From an uncultured delta proteobacterium (GTDB lineage: Bacteria; Desulfobacterota; WTBG01), in NCBI GenBank assembly GCA_963793865.1, contig CAWCBP010000012.1, positions 64,001 through 128,000 of the forward strand: 64,000 bases of DNA. The letters are read 5' to 3'. How positions within the stretch are numbered: the stretch's first letter is position 1; the number at the start of each line of letters is the position of its first letter. Below, one piece after another: positions 15,588 to 60,900 of the stretch. A program made the translations under genes and the position numbers. The notes beneath the pieces were generated by a model, which was not told where the DNA came from, searched no databases, and saw only the letters and a program-made list of their open reading frames with translations.

Positions 15588-16176
15588 TCACTATGCATGG
15601 CCCGTCCGTGGAGGACATTGATTGATGATTTGGTGATTTGAGTTATGTGGTGTAACCAAGGCAGGGGTCAAAACGGCTCCTGCCTTTACCATTCCCCTCT
15701 CTCAGACAGATCCTCCTGATCCCCATCTACCATCTCGGCATTCTGAGCATTAGTATCCTTTCTTTCAATAATGAACACCTGCTCCTGATATATGTGCTCT
15801 GGGAGTTTGTCCCATACCTGATCCAATAGCAGATTGAGTATCCTCAAGCTGTTTCTGCCTTCTTCATGATGAAGATACAAAATTCATGAGCTCTCTTGCA
15901 AAATTTTTTAGTCAATAAATAGCTAATTTATAAGATGTTTTATAAAAAAGTGTTTAAATCATGATTAATTGCACTTGACTATGTGTTTAGTCATTTGGTA
16001 TACTATACATAATTGATAAATTATATTAATGGTTTCTATATGATATACTTTATAATTATAATAAAAGAATTAAAGCTTCCATTTTTAAGTAAGGGGTTTG
16101 GCTCAATAGGTTACATACCAACGGTCAAACCCTTTTATTTCTAGTGTATCAATATGCATCTAATAAGGAGACATGT

Positions 16177-17010
16177 ATGAAAAAAAATCGGTATGGAATG
16201 CTTGGTATCACCTTTCTTTGCATATTATTATCATTTACAAGTACCCTCCTTGCTTTTGAATGCGTAGCACCCGTTGGCCAGAACTGTCTTCAATGTCATG
16301 TCCGCACTGATATCCACAATTTCCATTGGAATGAAATTGGTCTTACAGATCCCGCTGAATGTTCGCTATGCCACTCCGGGGATCCGCTAACATCTGCCTG
16401 TGAGGATCTGCCTCATGGTTACGCTCCGGTTGAAACTTCGGGCTGCGCCAATTGTCATTCTCAATGTTACGAGGTACAGAACCATATCCCAAGATCAGGC
16501 AATTGCACAACCTGTCATGCACAGACAAATATAGGGTTGGATGATGATTGTGACGGTATCTGCAATCCCGGTATAGTAGATGTTTCCTGCACGGGTTCAG
16601 ATAACTGTTCTTCGAATCCCAATGGCCCACTCCTTGGTACCTGTACAAAAGGAGTGGTGGGAAGAACGTGCGTAAGCAACGACCAGTGCGGAACAGGTGG
16701 TTTCTGCAGTACCAACCAAGATGACACCTATCCGCTGGGGGGGAACAATTGCGGTAATGTCTGTGAATGTGAGGGGAACTTCAGTATTGACGTGGATGTG
16801 GACGGCGGTGATGCAGCAACCTTTAAGGCTAACTTCGGCAGAGGTGGACTCAATAGACCCTGTACCAACGGTGATCTCTGCAACGGCGATTTTACCTGTG
16901 ATGGGAATGTGAGCGGATCTGATGCGGCACTTTTTAAATCTGATTTCGGTAGAAATGCAATAAACAACCCCTGTTCCTCCTGCGCAACAGATCCGTGGTG
17001 TGTGTATTAG
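16177..17010 (+). CDS. Exported tetraheme c-type cytochrome with a Cys-rich linker and a C-terminal dockerin/EF-hand-like domain
   Basis: Signal peptide; CLQCH, CSLCH, CANCH and CTTCH; CEGNFSIDVDVDGGDAATFKANFGR and CNGDFTCDGNVSGSDAALFKSDFGR; RBS AAGGAG. Confidence 0.88.
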   Translation: MKKNRYGMLGITFLCILLSFTSTLLAFECVAPVGQNCLQCHVRTDIHNFHWNEIGLTDPAECSLCHSGDPLTSACEDLPHGYAPVETSGCANCHSQCYEVQNHIPRSGNCTTCHAQTNIGLDDDCDGICNPGIVDVSCTGSDNCSSNPNGPLLGTCTKGVVGRTCVSNDQCGTGGFCSTNQDDTYPLGGNNCGNVCECEGNFSIDVDVDGGDAATFKANFGRGGLNRPCTNGDLCNGDFTCDGNVSGSDAALFKSDFGRNAINNPCSSCATDPWCVY

Positions 17011-39923: not shown

Positions 39924-41674
39924 TTATTCGTTTTGTAACGGCACGATGGCATCAAAGTGCTTCAGGGTGGAGTTCTCGCCGCTCAGAATCTGCCGGCAGC
40001 GCATCTTTGCCGCGGGGAGCATCGCGGAAATAAACCGCCGGGCGATGATCTTTTTTCGGGCGCAATGAGGCGACTGCCTGAGAAAGAGATAGCCGATGAG
40101 AATGGAGACGGCCATGTCCACCAGGTGGCGGGCGCAGAGATCGGTATACCGGCTGTCCTTTTTCTCCCCGAGGTATTTTACCGCCTGGGCGAGAAGAGAT
40201 CTGGCCTGGCCAAGCTTCCCGGAGAGCGCTTTGTTTCCGGCGCCGGCACACTCCTGCGAGAGGTCATCCAGGTAGCGATCCAGCGCGCCGCTGACGATGC
40301 TTCTCGACGCCGCGGCCACCTGCAGCTGGGAGGTGCCCTCGTAGATGGTGGTGATGCGCGCGTCCCTGAAGTAGCGCTCCACGGGGTAGTCCTTCATGTA
40401 GCCGCTTCCCCCCAGGACCTGGATGGCATCGGATGTTACCTGAACGCTCATCTCGGTGCTGTAATATTTGGCCAGCGGGGTGAGGAGCAGCACCAGGCGC
40501 TCGTATTTTTTTGCGTCTTTTTTAAGCTCTTTTAAGGGCGGGGCACTGCCCTGGTCCGCTTTTTCCGAAAGAGATTCAATGCTCTTCAGGGTCCCCGCGG
40601 CGGTGTCCATGGCGATTGCCGCCTCATAGGTGAGGGCCCGGGCCGCCTCGATCCGGACCTGCATATCAGCAAGCATGTCGGCAACCGCGGGGATGGTCTC
40701 GATGCGCCTTCCGTACTGCTGCCGGGCGTGGGCGAAGCCGCGGGCCTCCTGCAGCGCCGCCTGGGCGATGCCGATGGACTGGGCGGCGGTGCCGATGCGC
40801 GCGCCGTTGAGCAGCGCCAGGACGTAGGTTACCAGCCCGCGCTTCCGCTCGCCGATGAGCTGCGCGGGAACACCGTCGAACTGCAGCTCGCAGGTGGGCG
40901 AACCATGGATGCCCAGCTTCTCCTCGATGCGCCTCACCGTGATGCCGTCTTTCGCCTCGCAGAGGTACAGGCTTAAGCCCAGGCCTCCCTCCTCGTCAAA
41001 ATCAGAGCGCGCCAGCACCAGTACCACGTCGGCGTTGCCGTTGGTGATGAACCGCTTCACGCCGCGTGAGCCGCCAGGTGCCATTCTCATCCTGGACGGC
41101 CTTGAGCTTCACGTTCTGCAAATCGCTTCCCGCCTCGGCCTCGGTGAGGGCCATGGCGCCGGTCACCTCTCCCCGGCAGAAGAGGGGCAGGTACTTGTTT
41201 TTCAGCTCCTCGTCGGCAAAGGCATGGATGATTTCAGCGACACCCTGGAGCCCGAACAGGTTTTGCAGGCTGGCGTCGGCGCGGGCGACGATTTCCTGGG
41301 CCATGGTGAAGATGATCGCGGGAAAGTTGAGGCCGCCGTAGCGCCGGGGCAGGGTCATGCCCATCAGGTCCGCTTTGGCGAAGGCCGTCAAGTGAATCGC
41401 CGGTACCGGGCGCGTAGGTAACACTATGTCCATCAAAGGAAGACCCGGCAAGGTCGACCCCTTCGCCGCGGGGGGCGCTCCGCTCCGCCGCGATTTCACC
41501 CAGCACCGAGAGCACCCGCCGGTAGCTGTCCACCGCATCGGCTGCGTCCGCCGGGGCATAATCATAGCGCGAGGCGTCGATGAAACCCGGTTCATAGAGA
41601 TTCACGATCTTCGGCCAGTCGAAGTGACTGAAAAAAAACTGGATGTCCGCGTTGTCCTGGAAGAAGTTTTTCAC
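39924..41674 (-). CDS. Acyl-CoA dehydrogenase (two apparent frameshifts, near 41400 and 41070)
   Basis: Three consecutive frames give MKNFFQDNAD..., MALTEAEAGSDL and KRFITNG...KLGIHGSPTC...IYEGTSQLQ. Confidence 0.88.
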
Positions 41675-44448: not shown

Positions 44449-45630
44449 CTACCGATTGCCTGACGAACCGATGAGAGAATCCAGTAAAACCCGCAGCTTA
44501 TTTTTAAATTCTTCATCGTTTTCCAGGGTCTGAGCGAGCATCGGGCTCAGGCGGGAATAGAGATCAATCAGTTGGCGGCCCTCCGGTGTTGTGTTCAATA
44601 CTTCATCCCGAAACAAGCGCAAAGCTTCCGTTTCAGGGGCCTGGTCGCCATACAGTATGACTACGGGACAGCCGGGAACGGTTGTCGTGGTTGTTGAAAC
44701 AGGCGCGTATTTCTTGATGCAGTCGTTAGCGGCGTCAGCCACATAGATATTACCCTGATTGTCAATTGCCAGTCCATACGGGGAAGGCTGCGCTCCAAAC
44801 CCGCCCTTTCCTTCGAGGACGATGGTGGTAATGAGTGTGCCGTCTTGATCAATTTTCTTGATGCTGTGATGCAGTGCGTCGGAAACATATATGTTTCCGA
44901 CCCCGTCCAGCGCAATGCCGGTCGTGGTGCAGAAGATATCGTCTGCGGTGCATGGTTGGATTTGATCAACCAAGTCTCCGCCGGCTTGAAAAATCTGTAT
45001 CGGACCAATGATGGTTGCCGGTACGTAGAGATTATTCGCCGAATCTGTTGCCATCTCCAGGGCATCGAACCAGATGAACGGCCACTGGTCTATCAATATC
45101 CCCTCAGCGGTAAATTTTTGGATGCAGGTATAGTAGCGATCGGGCGGGGTAAGGGCCGCATGGTGCACGTAGATGCCGCCTTCTCCGTCCACTGCCAGCG
45201 CTCGAGGGGTGGAGTAAAGCCACCACCCGTCCGGCCTTGTGCTCCAGGCTGCAAGAAATTCTCCATCCGGAGTAAATTTTTGAATGCGGTCGTTCAGAAA
45301 ATCTGCCACGTACACATTGTCTTCCCCGTCCACGTCAATGCCCTGGGGGGCTATGAATTGGCCTTCCTCACTACCGTATCTCCCCCACCCGGTAAGGAAT
45401 GTGCCATCCGGAGTAAATTTTTGAATTCGGTGATTCGACGGATCCGATACGAAAAGATTGCTATCGCCGTCTATGGCAATTCCGTGGGGCTCAAGAAACT
45501 GTCCGTCTTCGGTGCCTGAACCGCCCCACTCAGCAACAAGTTCATAGTCTTGGGAGGCAGAGAAATGAGTTCCGCACAGCAAAAGTGAAGAACAAAAAAC
45601 TGAAAAAATGGCGGATAGCTCAGATTCCCC
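44449..45630 (-). CDS. Exported NHL-repeat beta-propeller with a Thr linker and CFI-box-CTERM-like C-terminal domain; start region probably frameshifted
   Basis: Repeated GQF..P.GI..D...N.YV.D..N.RIQKF; STTTTTVPGCP...LR.FRD.VL..T.EGR.LI.LY; AAGGAGG-ATG near 45630 is out of frame. Confidence 0.85.
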   Translation of the reverse strand, partial: GESELSAIFSVFCSSLLLCGTHFSASQDYELVAEWGGSGTEDGQFLEPHGIAIDGDSNLFVSDPSNHRIQKFTPDGTFLTGWGRYGSEEGQFIAPQGIDVDGEDNVYVADFLNDRIQKFTPDGEFLAAWSTRPDGWWLYSTPRALAVDGEGGIYVHHAALTPPDRYYTCIQKFTAEGILIDQWPFIWFDALEMATDSANNLYVPATIIGPIQIFQAGGDLVDQIQPCTADDIFCTTTGIALDGVGNIYVSDALHHSIKKIDQDGTLITTIVLEGKGGFGAQPSPYGLAIDNQGNIYVADAANDCIKKYAPVSTTTTTVPGCPVVILYGDQAPETEALRLFRDEVLNTTPEGRQLIDLYSRLSPMLAQTLENDEEFKNKLRVLLDSLIGSSGNR

Positions 45631-45865
45631 ATGATGATCCTCCTTCATATGACACATTGAAATATCATTGAATTCCAAATTTTACGGGAATGACATCTTT
45701 AGTTCTGTATTTTTTCCTCTTTGTGGGTGGCATCATTCATATGTAGGGGCGACCGGCCGGTCGCCCCTACGGAACTGATTTTCGTGTTACGTGGTGAAAT
45801 CTTTTCGTATTGCGTGAAAGGTGTGACAACCGGTGTTGCATATTTCCTCCCCCGGCACTTCACTC

Positions 45866-47353
45866 TTAATCATGCCCCGCTGTCCCCACAACACGGGCGC
45901 GAACGGCCAGATCGTAGGGCATCGTTGTTCCGCGTCCGATCGCCTGCCATGCTTTGCCGTCTTCGCTCACATAACAGCGTTCATTTTCGGGAGGACCCGT
46001 CACATCAACGGGGATGGGGTAACAATATCCCGGTGTGGTCAGCCGTATGGCAACAACAAAGTCATCGCCGACCCTTAGCGGGAGAGGGCGCAATAGCTTG
46101 ATAGAGTAGTAGCCCAGCTCATCGCACCTTCCCCTCTTGACGCAGCGCAGGTTTCGCATTGAATTCCCCTGCATCCGATCGTACACCCTGATTTCGTACA
46201 TCGCATTCACGCTGGTTGTCCAGAAGTCAACCGCCCGCAAAACCCCTGCCGTTTCGGGGATGAAAACTGCTGCGCACCAGGCTGTAGGCCTTCCCGCGCC
46301 GATGGAATTAACGCCGTCGCAGGACCCTCCCGCGTCGAGGCAGAAAAAACCTCCTTCGTCGTAGCAGAGGATGGATTCGTCAGGGTCGGAATCTTTGTAT
46401 GAGGAGATAAAACTGGACATGGTTCCTATTTTGGCTGCGCCGTAGGCGATGTGGCAGTAACCATTCATCCCCCAGTCATCACCCCAGCTGTTCTTGACGA
46501 TCCAGGCGCCTGCAGGTCCCAGGTTATCATCCCAGCCGACAATGAGAACGGAGTGGTTTGCCATGAGGGAATCATAATATTCATAGACCCCTCCCGTATA
46601 TGCCCGGAAAGCGGGATCGGATGCATCCATCGAGGACGTGACCGGCCCATGCCTGTAGAGAGCTGCCTTGATGGCCTCAACCAGGTTGGGAAGCACCCTC
46701 CAGCCATCCACATTTTTAATTATTTCGCAGCGGTGGTCGCACGGAACTCCGTCAACGGCCAGAAAAGGTTGGCATGATTCGAGGGAAGCGCCCCGCCGGG
46801 TCAAATAATTGATCGCCCTGAAGGCACTCCCGCCGGTAGAGCAGCTCCGGGCTTTCCCGGCAGAGGCAATGAAGTCACATGAGGCCAGCCCCTGTTCCGA
46901 AAGATCGTATGCTACGCCCTCGCGCAGCAGAATTTTTGATTCAAGCTCTGCCGCCGCGGTGAAGGCCCAGCACAGCTGGCAGGGATATTGATCTTTTACC
47001 GGTGTTATTTTGTCTTCATCCCGCCAGTCAAAGTATGAAGGGAGATGCCGCACGGGGTAAGGCCTTTTGAGCCGGCGTTCTTCAATGCTGCAGGGGATGG
47101 AGCCGGGCAGATTAGCGCTTTGACCAGGGGGCAGGTTATACATCCGGGTCTCGTCCACGGTAAAATTAAAACCCTGCTGCCGTATGCGATTTCTTATCTC
47201 CTCAATCGAGGGAAGAGGCTTATAGTCTGACCCTGCCATACTATCCTCAACAGTTTGCCGGAGCGGGCTGGATAGGTTCCAGCCGCATGCAGTCTTGAAG
47301 GAAATGCCCAGTGATAGTAAACAGGTACAGAAAATGAAAAAAGGCTTGTTCAT
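45866..47353 (-). CDS. Exported papain-family (C1A) cysteine protease with a C-terminal lectin-like domain
   Basis: FDWR, PVKDQ..C..CWAF, DLSEQ, NHSVLIVGW and IVKNSWG..WG..GY. Confidence 0.92.
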   Translation of the reverse strand: MNKPFFIFCTCLLSLGISFKTACGWNLSSPLRQTVEDSMAGSDYKPLPSIEEIRNRIRQQGFNFTVDETRMYNLPPGQSANLPGSIPCSIEERRLKRPYPVRHLPSYFDWRDEDKITPVKDQYPCQLCWAFTAAAELESKILLREGVAYDLSEQGLASCDFIASAGKARSCSTGGSAFRAINYLTRRGASLESCQPFLAVDGVPCDHRCEIIKNVDGWRVLPNLVEAIKAALYRHGPVTSSMDASDPAFRAYTGGVYEYYDSLMANHSVLIVGWDDNLGPAGAWIVKNSWGDDWGMNGYCHIAYGAAKIGTMSSFISSYKDSDPDESILCYDEGGFFCLDAGGSCDGVNSIGAGRPTAWCAAVFIPETAGVLRAVDFWTTSVNAMYEIRVYDRMQGNSMRNLRCVKRGRCDELGYYSIKLLRPLPLRVGDDFVVAIRLTTPGYCYPIPVDVTGPPENERCYVSEDGKAWQAIGRGTTMPYDLAVRARVVGTAGHD

Positions 47354-47583
47354 GGGAATGTACCCCCGGGATAGATTCATGTCACTGTTCCGGAGATGAA
47401 CGGGTTGCTTCCCGATTGTGGGCCGGCATGTCCGTATTACCATCCACGCCTCAGTGAGACAGCTGCTGAAGAAAACCATCTCAGGTAAACAAGAAAGGGT
47501 TACTGCACCTGGGTGAGGAGGTAATGGCGGAAGGCATGGATCAATACAGGATATGCCGGCCCCATTGACAAAATCCATGTGTA

Positions 47584-47979
47584 TCAATTACAAATGCCGT
47601 CATTGCACGTATTGTAACAGAGCACCAGGTCGATGTAGTACATCATCCATGCCAGTCCCAGGCAGGGCACAACCTCTTCTCCGCCCAGCACGCACATCAC
47701 TGCTGTCGCAAACCATGCAACCAGAGCAATTTCATCACAGCCGATGCCTTTTGGCTGCCCCGCGTTGTACCATGCCCACCAGTCATTGGCTTTTACTCCG
47801 GATGTGCCGTATCTGTAAAAGGCGCTGAAATTGTCCGTGCAGCATTTTGTGCAATCGCATGCGGCATTACAATTCTTGTCACTGGGCAGCCCCGGCAGTA
47901 TGGCGGCCGAAGCGGTTTGCGCCACGCATGTCCAGGCCACCAGTAAAGCTATCATTGCGGCGATAGTTCGAATCTTCAT
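47584..47979 (-). CDS. Small secreted Cys-rich protein (131 aa) with a hydrophobic C-terminal hairpin
   Basis: Strong RBS AAGGAGGTGA; Sec signal ending ASA-A; 11 Cys in the mature part and no His. Confidence 0.85.
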   Translation of the reverse strand: MKIRTIAAMIALLVAWTCVAQTASAAILPGLPSDKNCNAACDCTKCCTDNFSAFYRYGTSGVKANDWWAWYNAGQPKGIGCDEIALVAWFATAVMCVLGGEEVVPCLGLAWMMYYIDLVLCYNTCNDGICN

Positions 47980-48070
47980 TTCACTCACCTCCTTTCTTCT
48001 CAATGGTAATTTTGTCCTTCTTTTTTCCGTCACCTCCTTGCATGTCACCGCCTGTGCTCCTTCCTTGCGC

Positions 48071-49249
48071 TCATGGCATATCTTCTGCCAGTGGCGTCTG
48101 CCCGTTTTCTATAGCCGTAATCACTTCTTCCAGATACGTGAGGGAAGGGGTCCCTGACAGATAGAATCCATTAATGATTATGCCGGGGGTGCTGTTGATG
48201 CCCGCCAGGGCAGCCTCGGTCACATCCTTTTCCACCTCTTCCCTCCTACTGTCATCCTCCAGACACCGGTCAAACCGTACGGTTTCGAGGCCCGCCTGCC
48301 GGGCATATCTGCGCAGGCTTGCGACGTCCAGTTCCTGCTGATTGTCAAAAAGCAGATCATGATAATCCCAGTAGCGGTCCTGATCGTCGGCACATGCCGC
48401 TGCCAGCGCGGCCATGGGGGCGTCAGGGTGGGAAGGGAGCGGAAAGTCCCTGGCAACGATTCGTATGGCCCCTTTCTTTGTAACCAGCAGTTCTTTCAGT
48501 GTTGCGCTTGCCTTTTTGCAGGAGGGACACTGAAAATCAATGAAGGACTGAATGGTGATGGGGGCATCTCTGCGGCCAAGCCAGGGACCATCATCAGGCG
48601 TGAGGTCAAGGCGGAGAAGCGGTGGACGTTTGAGGAGAATTTCAATTCTCGATTGGTCCCGCAGTCCCCGGACAAAGGCTTCCCGTGCCTCGTTGACAGA
48701 AGCGGCCTTTTTCATTTCAACCACCTTGCTTTTAATGGCCTCTATAAACGGAGTGCCGGCACTGCCTGCCGGAAGAGAGATCCCCTCCGCGGCGTCCGGT
48801 GCTTGCATCACCGCAGTCCTTTTGGAAAACGATGGGAAATCATGCTGCATCTTTTTGACAAACTCCTGAAAGAGGGCTTCTTTATCAGATTCAAATGCTT
48901 GTGCCTTTTCTTCCGCCTGCGCAGTGACCATGGCGATAAGTTCATCAGCCTTCATGTTTCTTTTCGCCGCCTCCTGTTCCAGAAGCTTTTGGTCAATGTG
49001 CTGCTGAAGGACCGCCTTCTGCTCCCGGTAGAGACGAACCTCCATCGCCTGCAGCTCAACATTGTATCGCTGCGCCGGGTCATAACCGAGTTCATGCAGG
49101 CGAATTGCCGTTCCATCAATTCGTGCAATCACCCTGTCTCGTGCTTCCGCATCATCCAGGGCAGTTTGCTTGTCACCTGCAATAGAGGTGAATGCTGTAC
49201 CAAGCAAGGCACAGTGGACAACCACTACAAGCGCCGGCATTTTTCTCAT
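48071..49249 (-). CDS. DsbA/thioredoxin-like protein with an N-terminal SurA-like helical region
   Basis: DFQCPSC, RDFPL..H and GINSTP; N-terminal IDQKLLEQEAAKR. Confidence 0.88.
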   Translation of the reverse strand: MRKMPALVVVVHCALLGTAFTSIAGDKQTALDDAEARDRVIARIDGTAIRLHELGYDPAQRYNVELQAMEVRLYREQKAVLQQHIDQKLLEQEAAKRNMKADELIAMVTAQAEEKAQAFESDKEALFQEFVKKMQHDFPSFSKRTAVMQAPDAAEGISLPAGSAGTPFIEAIKSKVVEMKKAASVNEAREAFVRGLRDQSRIEILLKRPPLLRLDLTPDDGPWLGRRDAPITIQSFIDFQCPSCKKASATLKELLVTKKGAIRIVARDFPLPSHPDAPMAALAAACADDQDRYWDYHDLLFDNQQELDVASLRRYARQAGLETVRFDRCLEDDSRREEVEKDVTEAALAGINSTPGIIINGFYLSGTPSLTYLEEVITAIENGQTPLAEDMP

Positions 49250-49338
49250 GGCATTTCCTTTTTTCGTGGGTTTTTTTTCGTCCGGAGTCTGGCCCGGCAC
49301 GCGCTCTCCGCATGCCGCTTTCTTATCCGGAGCATTTA

Positions 49339-50634
49339 TTAACCGGGTTGAGGGAGGTTGTGTTTCATAAGGTTTCTAAAAACAAGCCTGCATAGGGCGG
49401 CAAAGTGATCTTCCATTGCGCGGCAGAACATTTCCTCGGTCAGCGTGTCTGTTTTTGCCCCCTCGAGCAGTGAGTCGAGTTTCTTTATGAATTCATCGCC
49501 ATTTAAAAACTGTATGGAAAATCTGTTCATAAGGTATCCGGCAAGATTGCGGGTCCGAACCGTGTCCCACGTGTAACGTTCTTGAATAAAAGCTGTTTTC
49601 TCTTCCATGTCTTCGCTGTAAGAAACACCGGCGGGATAGGCCGCGTATTCCGGATGCGGCTCCCGGCCGGGTACGGCTGCTGCCTTGAATTGTTGTATGC
49701 GCGCCTCAAGCAGGCGGGTAAAGGCAGATGTGCCTGACTCCATAAAACTCTCCTCCATGACCCGGTAGAAAACGCCCTCGTCTATGTGCGTTCCCCCCGC
49801 CCGCGCCAACCGCTGCTCGAGACGTTCCGCGAAATCGTCAATCAAGTGTTGCGAAGGAAGCTTGTTGACAAGCGCCCAGGCACGTTTTTCGGCCTGCTGA
49901 TCCTTCCATGCATAGTGCTTCTTCAGCTGCGCGATTTTCTTCTCCACCGTTTCCTCCCGCGGGCAGGTTTTTGTTCCTGAAGCGCTGCTGCCCGTCCAAA
50001 ATGCGTAGCAGGTATAATCAGGCAGAACATGGATTGCCTGTAGCGTTTCCATGGTTGCCCAGAAAAATATGAAAGAGGGGAGCATACATGCCAGCCGGGC
50101 GTTATTGCTGCCTGCCCGGAAGGTTTTATAAAGCATGAGGAGCGCGATGAGTAAAAAGACCAGACCTGTTCCCGCGGTGACGACCGTACGAAGGGTGGGA
50201 ATATAATCCTGCAGCACTTTTCCCCCATTGATCAGGAAGGCATGAAGCAGCCAGACACATCCGAAATGGCCGAGCGCGAAGCGCATGCCGATTGGCAGCG
50301 CCCTTTTGTAAATAATACAGGAAATGAGAAGAATGCAGGGAATGAGCATGACAGCGGCATCAGGTGTAACCAGCGATAATATTTGCTCGTGCTCCAGAAG
50401 TTCGCCGAAGAAGCACCAGAGGAAGAAGCCGGCTACAATTCCCCAGACTGCCTCCTTTTTCTTTTCAGCGCCTCCTGAGGCCTTCCAGAGGGTGACGACC
50501 ACCGAGATGAATAATATTGCCGCCAGGGCGGTCGTTGCCGAAAGGCCCATCCCGTAGGCCATGGACATGCAGAAATGGCCGAGAAAATAGATGCCATAGA
50601 AGAGGGTGAAGTACGCGAGAACAAATGGGATCAT
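49339..50634 (-). CDS. Multi-pass membrane protein with two C-terminal YxW helical repeats
   Basis: About seven hydrophobic segments, then KKHYAW...FYRVME and QERYTW...FCRAME. Confidence 0.8.
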   Translation of the reverse strand: MIPFVLAYFTLFYGIYFLGHFCMSMAYGMGLSATTALAAILFISVVVTLWKASGGAEKKKEAVWGIVAGFFLWCFFGELLEHEQILSLVTPDAAVMLIPCILLISCIIYKRALPIGMRFALGHFGCVWLLHAFLINGGKVLQDYIPTLRTVVTAGTGLVFLLIALLMLYKTFRAGSNNARLACMLPSFIFFWATMETLQAIHVLPDYTCYAFWTGSSASGTKTCPREETVEKKIAQLKKHYAWKDQQAEKRAWALVNKLPSQHLIDDFAERLEQRLARAGGTHIDEGVFYRVMEESFMESGTSAFTRLLEARIQQFKAAAVPGREPHPEYAAYPAGVSYSEDMEEKTAFIQERYTWDTVRTRNLAGYLMNRFSIQFLNGDEFIKKLDSLLEGAKTDTLTEEMFCRAMEDHFAALCRLVFRNLMKHNLPQPG

Positions 50635-50669
50635 GATTCCTGCCTTCCTTCTTTGTGCATCACGTTTGG

Positions 50670-51473
50670 CTAGAACCCGTTGCGGGAGTTGTCGTCCCGC
50701 TCATGTGCCCTGCTGTTGTGGTAGTGTTGGCTCAATCGCCTGACCTGCTGCATCATGAGCGGTGCAACATCGGGCGGAGCGGCGGCTTCGATTGCCTGGT
50801 AAAACGCCGCTGCGTTTAAAGGGGCGGTTCTTTCAGGCCCGCAGATTTTGTCGAGTTCCTTTACAATTCCGTCCAGCCCGAAATCTTTCGCCTCATCGGG
50901 CATTGCCTCCAGAAGATACAGTGCCCATTCGCGTGTTTCGTCATCTTCCCACAGGTAGCGGTCTTTAAAGGATGAGATCTTTTGCGAATATCCGTCACGC
51001 GGGGTGGAGGGCGCTGTGATATCTTCGCCTGGCTCATGCTGCCGTGCAGGTGGATCAGTACCGGGATTGCTGAATGCCGCCCCCGCCATTCCGCCGTTTG
51101 CAAAAATAATGACCTCTGTAATCGATTGACGGCGGCGGTCCCTGTCGCTGTAGCGGACGAGGTAATTTTTTGCCCCGGCTGCCTTGAGCAGTATCTTAAT
51201 GGCCTGTTCGAGCGGAAGGTCTTTAACGTGAATGCTGATGGGGTTAAACAGATGGTATGCTCCCCGACAGGTGATGTTTACCCGGCATGTATCACCCAGA
51301 GTCCCGAGAAGGGTTTCAAGAGGCGCATCCAAAGCATTTACGGAAACGACGTACCCCTGGGGGATCTCTTTCACTGTCACTTCGGGCCCTGACTGTACCG
51401 TGAGGGCACCGGCAGCAGGTAATGCAGCTACCGAAAAAGCGAAGATGAAAAGGAAAAGAGCCTGTTTCAGCAT
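50670..51473 (-). CDS. Exported protein: secretin/TonB N0 (STN)-like domain plus one YxW repeat
   Basis: Signal peptide; SVNALDAPLETLL..L....ISIHVKDLPLEQAI..LL; KDRYLW...FYQAIE. Confidence 0.75.
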   Translation of the reverse strand: MLKQALFLFIFAFSVAALPAAGALTVQSGPEVTVKEIPQGYVVSVNALDAPLETLLGTLGDTCRVNITCRGAYHLFNPISIHVKDLPLEQAIKILLKAAGAKNYLVRYSDRDRRRQSITEVIIFANGGMAGAAFSNPGTDPPARQHEPGEDITAPSTPRDGYSQKISSFKDRYLWEDDETREWALYLLEAMPDEAKDFGLDGIVKELDKICGPERTAPLNAAAFYQAIEAAAPPDVAPLMMQQVRRLSQHYHNSRAHERDDNSRNGF

Positions 51474-51507
51474 ATGTTGAGCATTTCTCGCACAGAGCAT
51501 GATACAA

Positions 51508-52362
51508 TCATCGTATGGGGTAATGGGCACTTGTCATCAGGTAACTGGCCGCAATGCAAAAAGAGGAGACGGCGGCACCAAAGGCGGTTATGGACAGGAC
51601 GGCGCTCGCGGTCCTGTCCCACCAGCGCTGATACCTGCCGTGGAGTATGAGCGCGTAGAGGAGCCACATGATCAGGCTTGCCGTCTCCACCGGATCCCAG
51701 CTCCAGTAGTGTCCCCAGATGATCCTGGCCCGGTACGCGCCGGTTGCCATTGCCATGCTGAAGAGTATAAAACCTACCGCCATGGCTTTATAGCCGATGT
51801 CGTCCAGTACCTGCGGCATCGGAAGCCGGTTAAGCATTGCCTGCGGCAGCGCCATGAGTTTTAACCGCTCTTTGGCAATGATCAGGAGTGCTGCTACACA
51901 GGCGATGAGAAAGGCGGCCAGGCTCATAATGCAGCTTGTAACATGATATGCCAGCACATTGCCCTTGAGAACCGGGGGGAGCGCCTCTATGCCGGGCGAG
52001 ATCCCGATTGAGCCGGATGCAGAGAGCATGGCAAGCGAAATAAAGGGCAGGATAAAAACTCCAAGCGCTTTTGTCCTGCAAACACGTTCGAGGGCAAGAT
52101 ACATCAGGGTCAGCGACCAGCAGGCAAAGACGATGGTTTCGTAAAGGGTAAAGAACGAGAGAGGACTGTGACCCATGCCGAGCTGATACGACTCAAACCA
52201 CCGCAGCGCGTAGGCGGCGGTGTGAGCAAGGAATCCGGCAACGGTCATGCCGGTTGCGGCTCTCCCGATTGCCCCCAGGCGAAAGAAGAAGTAGCAGCTA
52301 TACGCCAGCGATGAAAAAAGATAGACGTAAGAAACCGCACTGAAAAGCGCCACATTTATCAT
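51508..52362 (-). CDS. ccsA: System II cytochrome c maturation heme lyase CcsA/ResC
   Basis: GH.P...LYE, YH, and the WWD domain WGHYWSWDPVET...W..Y...LH. Confidence 0.9.
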   Translation of the reverse strand: MINVALFSAVSYVYLFSSLAYSCYFFFRLGAIGRAATGMTVAGFLAHTAAYALRWFESYQLGMGHSPLSFFTLYETIVFACWSLTLMYLALERVCRTKALGVFILPFISLAMLSASGSIGISPGIEALPPVLKGNVLAYHVTSCIMSLAAFLIACVAALLIIAKERLKLMALPQAMLNRLPMPQVLDDIGYKAMAVGFILFSMAMATGAYRARIIWGHYWSWDPVETASLIMWLLYALILHGRYQRWWDRTASAVLSITAFGAAVSSFCIAASYLMTSAHYPIR

Positions 52363-52422
52363 GTCCTTCCCCCTGTTACCCCTTATAACCGTTGCATGCC
52401 TGAAATATGAGCGGCACGAAAA

Positions 52423-53859
52423 TCAGGCAGCCCGGTATTGCAAGGCCAGCTTCTTGATGAGGCCGGCATAGTGTTCCAGGACATCCGGGTTGCGGCTGGC
52501 CCAGCCGGCAACCGTTACGCAGTAGTCGCCGCCGCCGTTTTCGATCGCTATCCAAATCTTTCGGTGAGCAAGCATAAACATCAGGGAAAAGCCGGCAATG
52601 GCAATCCCCGCGCCGGTCCAGATGAGACCTGCTCCCGGCTCGGTGCTGACGATGAGGCGCATGAAGCTGGATGCGCTTTCACAAGCTTCGATGCCGTCAA
52701 GGCGGAACTCATACTCTTTATCCCATGGTTGTGCGGGTCTCCCGGCATGAGCGGTGACCCGCGGTTTATAGAGGAGAGCGTTGTTATTCCCGTATACCTC
52801 AAGTGTGACCATGCATGATGCCTGGCAGGCAGACGATGTTTTCTGAAAAGAATCCGCGTGGAAATGATGGCTGAAGAAAATATCTTTCAGGCGAACGGTG
52901 TGTCCCGTCTCCGGAATGGTACAGCACTGATAGCGCTTCAGGGTAAATGACCTGCGCTTGCCGACTCCTTGTGGTGACAGGATTGACAGGATTATTTGAT
53001 GGCTGTCCTTGCCGGGAGATCGTGACTGACTGATGCGAATGCCGTCCCTGGTAATGGTCCGGTATCCCTCCAGCTTCTCCCGTACTTCTTTTTTGTCTTC
53101 CTGCAACAGCGTGACCTTCGTTTGATATATTGCTTGAGAATGATCGCTGCTTCCCGATGTTGATCCGACCGGCTCGCATTCGTCAAGCCTGATGGCGTAG
53201 TCAAGCCTTCTAAAGCATGGGTTGCCGTTTTCTTTGAAGAAAACCCTGTCGTCGCTTTCTCCCTCTCTGAGATACATCTCGCCTGATTGCGAGTAACTTC
53301 CCCAAAACCCCCCTGCCAGCACCATCAGAAGGCCGCTGTGCGCCAGGTAAAATCCCCCATGGTAAAGCCTGCCCCGCTGGCAGAAAAAAACAGATCCGGT
53401 TGTGCTGTGGTGTACCGATGGTCTGGATAGTTTTTTGGCCAGAAGACTGTAAAGGGCCGGGTAGAATCCCTCCCGCAGGAAGGCCACAGTAAAGGTATCC
53501 CGGAAAAGCGGTGAAGACGGCATTGTGCGTCTCTCCGCAGACCTGCTGAGAGAAAGAGCCTTGAGCGTTCCCGGTATGCGTTTTGCCATGCAGGCAATCA
53601 GGTTCAGGATAAACAGGATGAGCAGCATTTTGAAAAAGCGGGAGGCATCAACATCAGTGGAAAAGCAACCATTAAGAAGATTGCTGACACTGCCGCTTCC
53701 GGGCAGATGAATAGCTCTAACAAAGGAAATAATCCCGCCCTTCATGAGATCCGCAAGCATGGTGAGTAAAAACATGACCAGCAGAATAATGGTAAAGTTG
53801 ATTGAAGATATAAAAGTGAAGATGCGGTTTAGAATCCTTTTCACGCCGTCCCTGCGCAC
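52423..53859 (-). CDS. resB: System II cytochrome c maturation protein ResB/CcsB
   Basis: F..LL..F.LNLI.C...RIP, G.Y.AH.G.L..L.GG, EPG and H.KIW. Confidence 0.85.
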   Translation of the reverse strand: MRRDGVKRILNRIFTFISSINFTIILLVMFLLTMLADLMKGGIISFVRAIHLPGSGSVSNLLNGCFSTDVDASRFFKMLLILFILNLIACMAKRIPGTLKALSLSRSAERRTMPSSPLFRDTFTVAFLREGFYPALYSLLAKKLSRPSVHHSTTGSVFFCQRGRLYHGGFYLAHSGLLMVLAGGFWGSYSQSGEMYLREGESDDRVFFKENGNPCFRRLDYAIRLDECEPVGSTSGSSDHSQAIYQTKVTLLQEDKKEVREKLEGYRTITRDGIRISQSRSPGKDSHQIILSILSPQGVGKRRSFTLKRYQCCTIPETGHTVRLKDIFFSHHFHADSFQKTSSACQASCMVTLEVYGNNNALLYKPRVTAHAGRPAQPWDKEYEFRLDGIEACESASSFMRLIVSTEPGAGLIWTGAGIAIAGFSLMFMLAHRKIWIAIENGGGDYCVTVAGWASRNPDVLEHYAGLIKKLALQYRAA

Positions 53860-53868
53860 CAGGCTTTG

Positions 53869-55367
53869 CTATCCTGACCTGGCGCATGAATACAATTCTC
53901 TGTTTTGAATCATTGGCAACTCGTTTTTGAGATTACCTTGTTGGATTTCGTGAGGCATGGATCCCATGGCGGACATGTGATTGCGCAGAAAGGAGTTTTG
54001 CATCATGGCCTTTAATCCCTTGAAAAGCATGCTCTTCTTACATTCATCCTCCAGCGCATTCCACTGCGGCAGTTTTTTTTGATAGTATGTTTTGTAGCAC
54101 CGCAATGCCTCCTGAAATACTTCATCGCGGGTCATGCTGCGCGGTTTTATGACGGGGTTACCAGGTTGTAGTTGCTGTAGTCCCAGTCCTCGATATAGGG
54201 TTTCAGATCCCGGTATATGTCAGCATAAGGCCAGGGGGTTATCATGAGGAAATGAGGATTATCCGCGTTATAGTGTTGAGCCAGATCGAGGGTCTTCTGT
54301 ATCGATTGTGGCGTCTCGTGTGGCAGGCCCAGGATAAAAGAGCACTCGGTTATGATATGGTGCTCGTTCAGAAGCCGGATGGCCTCGCGGCATTCCCGGC
54401 AGGTCTGGGATTTTTTAAAGATATCAAGAACCGTCTGGTCCGCCGACTCGACGCCGATGAACATATGAACGATGCCGGCCTTGCGATACTTGAAGAGAAT
54501 GTCTTTATCTCTGACAATATCTCCGGCGCGGGTCTCGGCCAGCAGGTATATGCCCAGGTCTTTTTCTATCAGCAGGTCCAGGATTGCCTCCCAGCGTTCC
54601 CGGTCGCAGGTGGGATATTCATCAGCAATGAAAAAGGCGTTCACGCCAAAGCGGTGAAAGAGGTATTCTATTTCCCCGACAAAGTTTTGCGGACTCCTCG
54701 CGCGATAGGACTGCTGCCAGAATTTCTGCTGTGAACAGAAAGCGCAGCTGTTGCCGCAACCTCGCGAAGAGGAAACAAGGGCCACCTTTGCATCCTCAAG
54801 GAAGCTCAGGTAGTAGTCTTCCCAGCAAAGAAGATCCCAGGCAGGAGAGAGCGAATCAAGGTCATCCATAAATTCCCTTTGTGGTGTCATGATAATCTTT
54901 CCACCCTTCCGGTATGCAATCCCTTTAACCTCTGACAGTTGCCTGTTTCCCTCAATGGCGTCCAACAGTTCCGTGGTTGTATATTCGCCTTCCCACCTGA
55001 CAATGTAATCAATGACCCCGTTTCCCTGCTGCAGGGTTTCTTCGGGCATCATGGTGGGGTGGATGCCGCCGATGATGGTTATGATCTGCGGATCGATGGA
55101 TTTGGCCAGGGCGAGCACCCGGGTGGCATCGCGGATGGTGGCGGTATAGGCGGTGGAGCCGACGATATCCGGCCGTGACTCGGTGATGCGCTTGCTGATG
55201 TCCACATAGGTGTGGTCCTTTGCCATGGCGTCATAGATTTCAACTTCGTGCCCGGCATTTCTCAGCTCACCGGCTATATAAAGGAACCCCAGGTTGGCCC
55301 ACCTTCCCGCCGATTCAACCACCCCGCAGTGATAGGGCGGGGTAATAAGCAGTATCTTCTTTCCCAT
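53869..55367 (-). CDS. Cobalamin-dependent radical SAM enzyme (frameshift near 54150)
   Basis: B12-binding N-terminus (LG.LY.AG, GG.HPT), SSRGCGNSCAFC and GVES; continues into ORF 53869-54135. Confidence 0.9.
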
Positions 55368-55421
55368 GCATTTCCTCCCTGAATGCAATGCCACTCTTCA
55401 GCACTGGCGCATTACTGCATG

Positions 55422-55437
55422 GCAACAAGCGTGCCAG
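55422..55437 (-). promoter_or_regulatory. Sigma-54 promoter of the radical SAM-ResB-CcsA operon
   Basis: Minus strand CTGGCACGCTTGTTGC, an exact TGGCACG-N4-TTGC, about 55 nt upstream of the ATG. Confidence 0.85.
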
Positions 55438-57183: not shown

Positions 57184-57409
57184 AAACTGTCCAGCCTGTG
57201 CCAGGTGCTTGAGTGAAGAATAATTGCTTTTTTAACCTCGGAAAAGCTATTATTGGGCCATTATAGGTGGCAAATAGGGAGCTTAAGAAAATAATATCAA
57301 CCGGTTAGCTTGGCCCGACCCCATGTGATGCATGCTCCATTTAAGCATGGTGTCCCAGGAACTTTAAACGGCGCCTCACTGCCCTCTGCAAACAGGTCGT
57401 GCACGATGC

Positions 57410-58454
57410 TTATTGATCCTGAAAATAACCGCCTGCTCTCCAGTCGCTAATCCCTGTTGCACTTCGGGAAGCTCCCCCACTCTCACTTGCAGAGTCACCC
57501 TTGCAGTATTGCCTAATCCCCCGCTCACGCTGGAACCAGCACCGCTTGCTGTATTGAGTCCTCCTCCGCTTACGCTGGAATATGCTTCGCTCGTGCGATC
57601 TGACAAATCCGGATCTCCTGCTAAGTTCAAAGAGTCTCCCAGCACCGTTGAATAGTTTGCAAATGCCGTATTTCCACTTAATGCCGTATCGTAACCACCA
57701 CCGCCCACAAAGGCATAATCCCCGCTGGCCACATTATACCTGCCCCCGCTTACGCTGGCAGCCTCGCCGCTTGCAGCGTTATCAGATCCTCCGCTGACGC
57801 TCGCATATTGACCGCTTGCCTGGTTGTTATACCCTCCGCTCACGCTGGAATAAGTATTGCTCGCTCTATTTGCTGATCCGCCGCTTACACTGGCATGCTG
57901 GCCGCTTGCCGTATTGCCACATCCTCCACTCACGCTGGCATAGGGTCCGGAAATGGTATTGCTGATGCCTGTTACCATTCCCCCATACGAAGAATAATTA
58001 TGCCATCTGCCGACCACAACATTGTGTGAACCAGTGCGAACATCCCCGCTGCCGCGAAGCTCGTTGTAGCTTACAATCAGGTTTCCCAGACCATTGATTG
58101 GTTCACCGGTATTGCCGCTGCCGTTTACAATCTGTACATTCACTCCGCTGAACCGGATCGTATCCTGTCCGTTCACGAGCAGTCTTGTTACATTGGCCAG
58201 CAGCGCTTCTAGTTGCGTAATCCTCATTTCCAGTTGCTCGGCGGTCTGGCACTCGATCACCGGGCAGGGATCCAGCAATGAACTTCTGCCGAAATCCGAC
58301 TTGAACACGAAGGCATCGGTACCATCCTGGTCCAGATCATTATCGAAATTGCCCTCACAGTAGTCGATTGGTTGTGCCATGACGACAGGCACTGATGATG
58401 AAAACAAAAAAGCTGCTGCTACCGCAAAGACCATCTTCCCATCAACCGTTTCAT
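57410..58454 (-). CDS. Secreted protein: dockerin-like N-domain, coiled coil and SVSGGxxNxASG repeats (two apparent indels)
   Basis: CEGNFDNDLDQDGTDAFVFKSDFGRS; the corrected C-terminus DWRAGGYFQDQ* at 57410 matches the paralogs. Confidence 0.85.
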
Positions 58455-59181: not shown

Positions 59182-60504
59182 TTAATTATACTCATACAAA
59201 GTGCCTGCTGTCCAATCCTCACTGCCTGTCGCACTTCGGGCAGCACCTCCGCTCACGCTGGAGCAATAGGCGCTGGCTTGGTTAATGTCCCCCCCGCTCA
59301 CGCTGGCACCCCAGCCGGTTGCTTGACCATCCCGACCGCCACTAATGCTGGCATAATCACCGCTTGCGTAATTTCCATTTCCCCCGCTCACACTTGAAGC
59401 ATCACCACGCGCTGTATTTCTTTCCCCTCCGCTCACACTGGAATTTTCTCCAATTGTGTGATCTGTCAGGGCTCCATCTCCTGCTACGTTATCTCTTCCC
59501 CCAAGCACCGCTGAATAATGAGCAAATGCTGTATTTCCATATCCTGCTGTGTCGGCACCACCACCACCACCAACAAAGGAATAATCACCGCTGGCCACAT
59601 TATATCTTCCGCCGCTCACACTGGCACCCCAGGCGGTTGCCGTATTATTGAACCCGCCGCTCACCGTGGAACGGGAGCCGCTTGCTATATTATATTGCCC
59701 TCCGCTCACCGTGGCTGACTGGGCAAAGGTATGGTCGATGAGATCCGGATCGCCGGTAAGATTACTGCGGCCGCCCAGTATTGCTGTATAATGACCGAAT
59801 GCCTGATTTCCATCAGATGCACTGGTATATCCACCTCCGCCTACGAAGGAGAAATCACCGCCGGCTTCATTATACCTGCCGCCGCTCACGCTGGCATAAG
59901 CGCCGCTTGCAGTATTAACTGTTCCTCCGCTCACATTGGTGCCAGAAGCACTTGCTATATTACCGGCTCCCCCGCTCACGCTGGCATAGGATCCGGAAAT
60001 CGTATTGTGGCGGCCTACTACCAGCCCACCATAGGATGAATAGTTGTGCTCTGCACCGACCACAACATTGTGAGACCCGGTTCGATTGTCACCGCTGCCG
60101 CGAAGCTCGTTATATCCCACAATAAAGTTGCCCAGACCATTCGTGGTTCCGCCTGTTGTCCCGCTCCCATTAACGATATGAACATTCACTCCGCTAAAGG
60201 TGATGTCGTTCCCGTCCCTGGTCACATTTGCCAGCAGAGCAGTCAATTGTGCCACCTGCGTTTTTAGCTGCTCAATCTCAATTCCTAATTCTTCGGCCGT
60301 CTGGCATTCGATCACCGGGCAGGGATCCAGGAGTGAGCTCCTGCCGAAATCGGACTTGAACACAAAGGCATCCGAGCCATCCTGGTCCGCATCGTTGTCA
60401 AAATTGCCCTCGCAATAGTCAATCGGTTGCGCCATGACAGGAGATACTGATAGTGAAACCATAAACCCGATTACCATTGTGAACACGAATATCAATCTCT
60501 TCAT
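59182..60504 (-). CDS. Secreted protein: dockerin-like N-domain, coiled coil and SVSGGxxNxASG repeats
   Basis: Signal peptide; CEGNFDNDADQDGSDAFVFKSDFGRS; many 14-aa repeats; GGGAGG RBS. Confidence 0.88.
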   Translation of the reverse strand: MKRLIFVFTMVIGFMVSLSVSPVMAQPIDYCEGNFDNDADQDGSDAFVFKSDFGRSSLLDPCPVIECQTAEELGIEIEQLKTQVAQLTALLANVTRDGNDITFSGVNVHIVNGSGTTGGTTNGLGNFIVGYNELRGSGDNRTGSHNVVVGAEHNYSSYGGLVVGRHNTISGSYASVSGGAGNIASASGTNVSGGTVNTASGAYASVSGGRYNEAGGDFSFVGGGGYTSASDGNQAFGHYTAILGGRSNLTGDPDLIDHTFAQSATVSGGQYNIASGSRSTVSGGFNNTATAWGASVSGGRYNVASGDYSFVGGGGGADTAGYGNTAFAHYSAVLGGRDNVAGDGALTDHTIGENSSVSGGERNTARGDASSVSGGNGNYASGDYASISGGRDGQATGWGASVSGGDINQASAYCSSVSGGAARSATGSEDWTAGTLYEYN

Positions 60505-60900
60505 ACCATCCTCCCGCAAAAAAAATTCCCGCTTCATTCCCTGACCACCATGGTCAGCGGTAAAGCGGGGTTATCTCTCACAAAAACATCATGTGTGCCA
60601 CTCTATTCCCCTCCGGATTATCACGTATCGTAATTTAATCATAAAATACCTGTTCCCTCAAGGACTAAAAACCCCACGGACTGCGGGATTCTTAATTTGG
60701 CTGTGCGGAGAGAAAATCCTAGACCGCTCACGCAAAAGGTGCTACAAATATGGGTAACATCGAAGGTTGCCTGTTATCCGCGTTCAACGATGTAGAGCGG
60801 CTGTCTGAACTGTTGTTGCTTCACCTGGAATACGACCTGCCGGACGGTCATCAAACGTTCTGTTTCATCCCCCTGGCCAGGACCGGAATGGAGTAAACGG

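Follow-up and report, generated by a model that had tools for sequence, protein, structure and literature searches.

An operon joining a sister of BchE, an altered CcsBA pair and a small cysteine-rich secreted protein in an uncultured Desulfobacterota bacterium

Some of the machinery that bacteria use to handle heme and its chemical kin is well described. System II CcsBA (ResBC), as in H. hepaticus and B. thetaiotaomicron, is known as a heme exporter and a cytochrome c synthase in one, two functions that laboratory mutants uncouple at W828 (residue numbers of this kind are those of H. hepaticus CcsBA); dedicated System II lyases, such as NrfI and CcsA1 of Wolinella, serve the motifs CXXCK and CX15CH and adjoin a cytochrome. 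BchE is the anaerobic Mg-protoporphyrin IX monomethyl ester cyclase, which closes a propionate of its substrate into a ring, and other cobalamin (B12)-dependent radical S-adenosylmethionine (SAM) enzymes are C-methyltransferases of ribosomally synthesized and post-translationally modified peptides (RiPPs). In this paper, we consider an operon in which relatives of CcsBA and of BchE stand together. It lies in a stretch of 64,000 nucleotides (positions 64,001 to 128,000 of contig CAWCBP010000012.1, forward strand; hereafter the window) from an uncultured sediment bacterium of the Desulfobacterota, whose genome (G000) is 3.85 Mb and 98.6% complete.

What could such an operon be for? Our answer, which we offer tentatively and rate a shade short of probable, is that its genes, under sigma54 control, encode a module for making a modified heme-type tetrapyrrole, exporting it and handing it to a small protein folded by a DsbA-like oxidoreductase. 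First, a cytoplasmic sister of BchE would modify heme or a precursor porphyrin, the probable site being a propionate side chain, which is also where BchE acts. Second, a duplicated CcsBA pair that keeps its four channel histidines would move the cofactor out without making cytochrome c. Third, and this is the weakest step, a small secreted protein might receive the tetrapyrrole after the SurA/DsbA-like protein had folded it into up to five disulfides, with a leftover cysteine for a single thioether, or else with non-covalent binding. The STN-like and membrane proteins of the operon would probably serve as chaperones or in the hand-over, and the protease as an accessory. As far as sequences can tell, the module would work like System II heme handling, yet it would fall outside both the cytochrome c synthases and BchE. 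The first-pass annotation of this DNA did not recognise the system as described, and we, too, found no published description in the literature that we searched, from which most subscription journals were missing.

A conserved operon

The genes are co-oriented on the minus strand, in the order radical SAM enzyme, ResB, CcsA, STN-like protein, membrane protein, SurA/DsbA-like protein, small Cys-rich protein and C1A protease (Table 1). All of these had been named correctly in the first-pass annotation, down to the 131 residues and the lack of histidine in the small protein, and so had the absence of a cytochrome: none of the nine open reading frames (ORFs) of the operon carries CxxCH, and the sole CxxCK is the thioredoxin motif of the DsbA-like protein. 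The earlier count of eight tightly packed genes has to be amended, with the radical SAM gene split into two ORFs, the intergenic gaps widening to about 200 bp ahead of the final two genes, and a gene for an NHL-repeat protein with a CFI-box following 187 bp past the protease. This last gene is syntenic across the genus and is possibly co-transcribed with the operon.

An exact sigma54 promoter had been reported as well. The motif TGGCAC-N5-TTGC is indeed present, but alone it is weak, the genome holding 10 where 6 are expected. A TGG(C/T)(A/G)-N7-TGC site does, however, stand upstream of the radical SAM gene, at differing distances, in five of five close loci (and in none of three more distant ones), and G000 encodes rpoN and many activators. 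A scan for sigma70 promoters and terminators stayed at chance level.

How far is the arrangement conserved? Our comparison set held 41 to 42 genomes of the class, many of them incomplete; G001, G002 and G003 share the genus of G000, G008 shares its family, and G039 belongs to a different family. The order from the radical SAM gene through the small gene is kept in G001, G002, G003 and G008, and five of the 42 class genomes, with a sixth in part, share the sigma54 motif and the small gene as well as the gene order. Matches to the radical SAM enzyme (6/41 genomes), the membrane protein (6/42) and the small protein (5/42) co-occur. The small gene has the identical position in all five complete operons, and a DsbA gene lies directly upstream of it in nine of nine metagenome loci. 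The operon is a real conserved unit. Its protease is dispensable, and hence accessory, because the operon of G001 is without one; the earlier view of proteolysis as an essential step thus finds no support. In G039, the first five operon genes run to the end of a contig, and two other small secreted genes stand between those for the radical SAM enzyme and ResB (L012:1322-1756, 1981-2355); their products are near-identical over the N-terminal 38 residues and differ in their Cys-containing bodies.

The altered CcsBA pair

G000 also has a canonical ResB/CcsA pair, adjoining a multiheme cluster, so that the operon CcsBA is a second, non-housekeeping copy. Much about it is what one expects of System II. 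ResB (23% identical to the housekeeping ResB) and CcsA adjoin, the four heme-ligand histidines (TM-His1, TM-His2, P-His1 and P-His2) are kept in all six CcsA and all six ResB rows, and the core W-x3-W-x-W-D is retained, CcsA having P-His1, TM-His2, P-His2, W833, W837, W839, D840 and E843. The rest of the WWD domain, which had been called intact, is a different matter. It reads R211...W216...W220-x-W222-D-P-V225-E226-x-A228, with R, V and A in place of the W, K and W of the housekeeping CcsA. In all six operon copies W828 has become R, K842 has become V, W845 is a small residue and V889 is replaced, as is N890 in five of the six, whereas the housekeeping CcsAs of the class keep W828, K842, E843 and W845 in 31 of 31. 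(The alignment omits 11 rows that were duplicates, fragments or members of distant families.)

These substitutions are not confined to the operon. Eight sister CcsA rows from other genomes of the class have R or H at 828 and V or T at 842, plus Q for E843, and they form one clade with the operon copies (support 100) that joins the housekeeping copies at a modest support of 83-84; the operon CcsBA was probably duplicated from the housekeeping copy of the class. A database search brought the clade to 86 members, and among the 84 that could be read R828 occurs in 82 and V842 in 83, which makes these fixed substitutions and not decay. With the WWD motif read in about 55 of the 78 PF01578 matches, altered CcsA was found in 14 class genomes and, among 401 genomes of the phylum searched, nowhere outside the class.

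What would a CcsBA with these changes do? In PMC6299221, alanine at W828, W833, K842 or E843 abolishes synthetase function while b-heme still copurifies. Section 9 of PMC10663686 places K842/V889/N890 and W828 in the two cysteine pockets, both of them kept in the dedicated lyases of Wolinella. In PMC13645880 the W828 equivalent acts as a gate, and once it is lost translocation is no longer coupled to ligation: a W703C (=W828) variant is loaded with heme without opening, its transport decoupled from ligation. In the six operon CcsAs, two of the four WWD residues required for ligation (W828 and K842 of W828, W833, K842 and E843) are gone, and both predicted cysteine pockets are altered by the replacements at W828, K842, V889 and N890. 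The pair resembles the Wolinella lyases in being an extra CcsBA beside a candidate non-canonical acceptor, but its pockets are altered where theirs, by the published description, are kept, and its candidate acceptor is free of histidine, with no CXXCK or CXnCH cytochrome co-located. Nor is there a CXXCH substrate nearby, in contrast to ordinary System II: a multiheme cytochrome was found at none of six operon-clade loci and none of nine sister CcsA loci. The earlier view of the pair as a normal dedicated heme lyase does not fit these pockets. By analogy to the mutants, we suggest, with the same reserve as for the chain as a whole, that it may transport without ligating heme to CXXCH.

The first-pass annotation had named three things that would count against its proposal, namely that the radical SAM-ResB-CcsA trio always accompanies multiheme cytochromes, that the downstream genes are not syntenic elsewhere and that this is the only CcsBA of the genome. 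None of them is outright the case, although the first holds in part: no multiheme cytochrome stands at the operon-clade loci, while in most other phyla the radical SAM family does have them as neighbours, at 41 of 79 loci.

The radical SAM enzyme and its relatives

In G000 the radical SAM gene is split into ORFs at 55367-54147 and 54135-53869 by the loss of one base near 54153. The enzyme is whole (509-516 residues) in G001, G002 and G008, and contigs from four of four independent runs have one extra base near 54153, which points to an assembly error or a strain-specific lesion. An acyl-CoA dehydrogenase gene of the window (39924-41674; 582 residues in G003) is likewise split in this assembly, consistent with frameshift errors.

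Which family does the enzyme belong to? Its best match is TIGR02026 (BchE), where the split piece falls under the cut-off of 481 bits and two full-length relatives, at 405 and 426, do so as well. Its top plasmid matches are annotated BchE (36-40% identity over 90% of the length), and with BchE it shares an N-terminal P-x-Y-H-x-G-x-x-E-x-A-G-x-W and a C-terminal P-W-P. Of 91 residues invariant in its family, 70-72 are shared by four annotated BchE proteins and 35-48 by twelve other B12 radical SAM enzymes, and trees make the family and BchE sister groups (support 96 in FastTree and 86 in a quick IQ-TREE run of 21 rows). By its sequence, then, the enzyme is a sister of BchE and not a member: it stays below the curated cut-off, G000 has no match to BchM (PF07109), and the genomic context is heme export, not photosynthesis. 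From this kinship and context, we infer that the enzyme may act on a tetrapyrrole, a claim that we put forward as tentatively as the chain to which it belongs.

The first-pass annotation took it for a peptide methylase. It does have the B12-binding and radical SAM architecture of the RiPP C-methyltransferases, and there is a small gene in the cluster, but it groups with BchE and scores far below the RiPP models, at 108 bits against a cut-off of 282 (TIGR03975) and at 149 against 750 (ApyD); moreover, the enzyme itself carries no signal peptide, unlike the small protein, which is conserved and exported.

The wider family gives a second view. We surveyed the neighbourhoods of 79 loci, drawn from the best 80 of 122 relatives (L020-L091), many on short contigs, and found CcsA at 43, ResB at 42, a multiheme cytochrome at 41, a 128-residue membrane protein at 31 and a doubled-CXXCH cytochrome at 29. 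Proximity to CcsA and to multiheme cytochromes ties the family to heme handling. Among the partner cytochromes is a relative of PDB 7tfs, which we take to be OmcE. Because the operon enzymes nest within this cytochrome-linked family in the tree, the radical SAM gene probably came to the operon from a cytochrome-maturation module, and the CcsBA of the operon is of different origin.

That module is widespread and unnamed. It comprises the BchE-sister radical SAM enzyme, ResB, a CcsA with K842 replaced, the 128-residue membrane protein (which bears an NNxxHD motif), an NHL protein and doubled-CXXCH cytochromes, often terminating in C-xn-C-x1-2-H; in the literature searched, we found no paper on it. 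The modules of Thermincola, Geotalea, Nitrospirota and Ignavibacteriota share with our operon the radical SAM family (45-55% identity) and the replaced K842. They differ in having multiheme cytochromes with doubled CXXCH and CxxxxCH, where the operon has none, nor the 128-residue partner, and the operon CcsA comes from another clade, with R for W828. In Nitrospirota (L031, L036, L038, L052) the enzyme carries a fused C-terminal polyketide-cyclase/SRPBCC domain, which suggests a hydrophobic small-molecule substrate, and the nearest relative of the operon enzyme (L017:5971-10287) is followed by a FrhB-like gene and one for an octaheme cytochrome, with CcsBA absent.

With so many cytochromes about, one might imagine that the operon CcsBA is a lyase after all, forming thioethers on CX3CH, CX4CH or CX8CH of cytochromes encoded elsewhere, with the radical SAM enzyme acting as it does in the multiheme clusters. 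Eight G000 cytochrome ORFs bear motifs of this type, and the usual partners of the radical SAM family are the doubled-CXXCH cytochromes just described. We nonetheless consider this very unlikely. The single cytochrome that we examined (G000:C1:550432-551586) retains its CX3CH and CX8CH in 16 of 16 orthologs, including that of G020, a 100% complete genome with one CcsA match and no match to the radical SAM enzyme; being kept in genomes without the operon, it weakens the case, and it is apparently matured by ordinary CcsBA. The C-terminal C-xn-C-x1-2-H motif occurs in no G000 cytochrome, and the comparison of pockets with the Wolinella lyases, as section 9 of PMC10663686 describes them, argues the same way.

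The small protein and the proposed module

The small protein is the candidate acceptor, on the grounds of its position and its cysteine count, and we give it that role as hesitantly as we give the others theirs. All twelve sequences have 11 invariant cysteines past the signal peptide and no conserved histidine, and that of G000 forms a hydrophobic C-x14-C-x9-C-x14-C hairpin; the odd number would leave one thiol unpaired or intermolecular. The protein is under purifying selection, the ratio of nonsynonymous to synonymous substitution rates being 0.07-0.33 in nine of ten measurable pairs and 0.53 in a near-identical pair (five further pairs are saturated). Its structure model has a predicted local distance difference test (pLDDT) score of 50 and no fold match, with Atlas matches at or below 0.80, which is chance level. 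A likeness to saposins, halocins or bacteriocins found no support.

Could the small protein instead be a RiPP-like product, methylated by the radical SAM enzyme, given heme by CcsBA and matured by the protease, as the first-pass annotation had it? Co-oriented genes behind one promoter and an odd cysteine would suit such a pathway. Against it, the enzyme groups with BchE, far from the RiPP methylases, G001 manages without the protease, and the small gene is single-copy, with a Sec-type signal and a conserved mature part in place of a leader/core pattern, all of which makes this pathway highly improbable. Pfam and NCBIfam scans of the operon proteins gave no RiPP recognition element, no search having been aimed at such elements.

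The proteins between CcsA and the small protein are less easily placed. An unnamed helical repeat of about 75 residues occurs once in the STN-like protein, whose 17 homologs are all unnamed, and twice in the membrane protein. The N-terminal domain of the latter has invariant W73, G77, E78, F124, W128 and E196 and near-invariant H131 and W192; its family (30 representatives) is unnamed and mostly consists of stand-alone proteins of 200 residues, and G000 encodes two distant paralogs besides, one of them separated from the housekeeping ccsA by about 4 kb. Although the model is good (pLDDT 92), Foldseek gave no match for the domain at E<=0.001, Atlas matches stayed below 0.8, Pfam gave none, and the best VIA-align match (Z 8.4) spans only a helix pair of 57 residues, with no match to the whole domain; these results speak neither for a new fold nor against the existence of a relative. 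The motif of the domain may resemble that of intramembrane Glu/His proteases (CPBP/Abi, PrsW), a likeness without a Pfam or whole-domain match. A predicted complex of membrane protein and small protein scored 0.01, which we count neither way.

The DsbA-like protein, a thioredoxin fold with CxxC (CPSC, CPYC or CPFC in five of five), raises a question of its own, for neither DsbB nor VKOR was found in G000 at its 98.6% completeness, despite five DsbA-like domains and one DsbD-type gene. Perhaps the altered CcsBA holds its b-hemes permanently and replaces DsbB/VKOR as the membrane electron sink or source for DsbA in the service of a cysteine-rich secretome, the small protein being a disulfide-rich client. 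The ligands retained at both CcsBA heme sites agree with this idea, as do the secreted Cys-rich proteins or subtilases that precede the sister CcsA in four of nine loci. We think such a redox role improbable all the same: it leaves unexplained both the BchE-like enzyme that heads the operon and the chelatase-like neighbours (below), none of the nine sister CcsA copies adjoins DsbA, and altered CcsA is absent from most genomes of the class.

The chelatase-like neighbours are secreted proteins labelled CbiX-like from Pfam CbiX matches (three of four over the cut-off). Their gene lies directly downstream of the sister CcsA in four of nine loci, and seven of the 14 genomes with altered CcsA contain it, against none of the other 28, kin among these not being independent. 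Such company, together with the lack of multiheme cytochromes near the sister copies, accords with our main reading. The CbiX/ferrochelatase-like family is seen at L145:7234-8205, L146, L150 and L153 and twice in G000 (C12:6652-7695, C9:75606-76598), where both copies have Tyr in place of the second His motif; a search of solved structures with the alignment gave weak LacI matches only. One may therefore read the locus as a composite, in which the radical SAM enzyme and altered CcsBA supply tetrapyrrole to other exported proteins (chelatase-like, or a cytochrome-ferrochelatase fusion), while DsbA, small protein and protease share the promoter but belong to a secreted system of their own. The dispensable protease and the want of a small-protein match in G039 would fit. 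This reading, too, strikes us as improbable, since the small gene keeps its fixed place in the operon and beside DsbA, and since no chelatase-like gene was found in G001, G002 or G008, all of them operon carriers.

A last alternative reverses the direction of transport: the small protein would capture a scavenged pigment, and the channel would bring it in for the radical SAM enzyme to process in the cytoplasm. Genes resembling ferredoxin-dependent bilin reductases are abundant here (14 in G000, and 6-22 per genome in 32 of 42 class genomes) in a lineage that shows no sign of phototrophy, and they might be taken as support. They also mark the lineage as rich in enzymes of tetrapyrrole type, which suits our main reading too. 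They are, however, far commoner than the operon (6/42), and the CcsBA transport known from PMC6299221, PMC10663686 and PMC13645880 is outward; we regard uptake as very improbable.

We return, then, to the making, export and hand-over of a modified tetrapyrrole, against which several findings weigh. The radical SAM gene is broken in the G000 assembly and interrupted by an insertion sequence in G003, where there are also several frameshifts, and the sister grouping with BchE depends on few outgroups. Altered CcsA occurs in eight genomes where the radical SAM enzyme was not found, so CcsA was not shaped by that enzyme. Among the CcsAs near the radical SAM enzyme in other phyla, K842 is replaced in 37 of 39, beside real cytochromes, so that this change alone does not mean that ligation is lost, and W828 is Y in 6 of 39. 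(We had supposed that loss of K842 might track a propionate-modified heme; for the class, we reject this, as the change also occurs where the radical SAM enzyme was not found.) The 128-residue membrane protein, present at 31 of the 79 loci, was not found in G000, and the small protein offers neither histidine nor invariant methionine to ligate iron. Finally, G039 (contig cut, 90% complete) has the radical SAM, CcsBA, STN-like and membrane genes and no small-protein match.

Why pursue it? A clade of natural CcsAs, at least 84 in number, in which R is fixed at W828 offers a test of whether CcsBA is used in nature to export tetrapyrroles and nothing more. We found no closer relative of BchE outside photosynthesis than this radical SAM family, whose companions in metal-respiring bacteria are multiheme cytochromes of the nanowire type. 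The reaction that it catalyses therefore matters for extracellular electron transfer, where hemes may be modified, and for the question of how the ring chemistry of chlorophyll arose. The operon separates the enzyme from these large cytochromes and offers a candidate acceptor of 106 residues, easily expressed. One can go further and imagine, though we think it unlikely, that a non-photosynthetic sister family of BchE makes a chlorophyll-like heme that most carriers attach to multiheme cytochromes and that this lineage exports, through a neofunctionalised CcsBA, onto a small disulfide-rich pigment protein, bound by a single Cys and with no His ligand. If that were so, the tetrapyrrole cofactor and the type of hemoprotein would both be new, and the chemistry of BchE would have arisen outside photosynthesis.

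Table 1. Features of the operon and of the gene that follows it, in window coordinates
Feature	Position	Strand	Basis
Sigma54 (-24/-12) promoter motif TGGCAC-N5-TTGC	55422..55436	-	Site kept in 5/5 close loci; rpoN in genome
Cobalamin-dependent radical SAM enzyme, family sister to BchE	53869..55367	-	PF02310 and PF04055; TIGR02026 374 bits; trees
ResB/CcsB paralog	52423..53844	-	PF05140; transmembrane H169 retained
CcsA paralog, altered WWD domain (R211, V225, A228)	51508..52362	-	H140, H241, H280 retained
STN-like exported protein with one helical repeat	50670..51473	-	Weak PF07660, below cut-off
Membrane protein of unnamed family, seven-helix N-terminal domain and two helical repeats	49339..50634	-	Alignment, model
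Exported SurA-N-like and DsbA-like oxidoreductase (CPxC)	48071..49249	-	PF13462 101.7 bits, PF01323, weak SurA_N
Small secreted protein, 131 residues, candidate acceptor	47584..47979	-	11 homologs; 11 invariant Cys
Secreted papain-family (C1A) protease with lectin-like domain, accessory	45866..47353	-	All four catalytic residues present: Q122, C128, H267, N288
NHL-repeat protein with CFI-box-CTERM	44449..45657	-	Syntenic in genus

Elsewhere in the window, a tetraheme cytochrome and two beta-helix repeat proteins (16093-17010, 57376-58434, 59182-60537) have in common a dockerin-like tag, GNFDxDxDxDGxDAxxFKSDFGR, which is present on many secreted proteins of G000.

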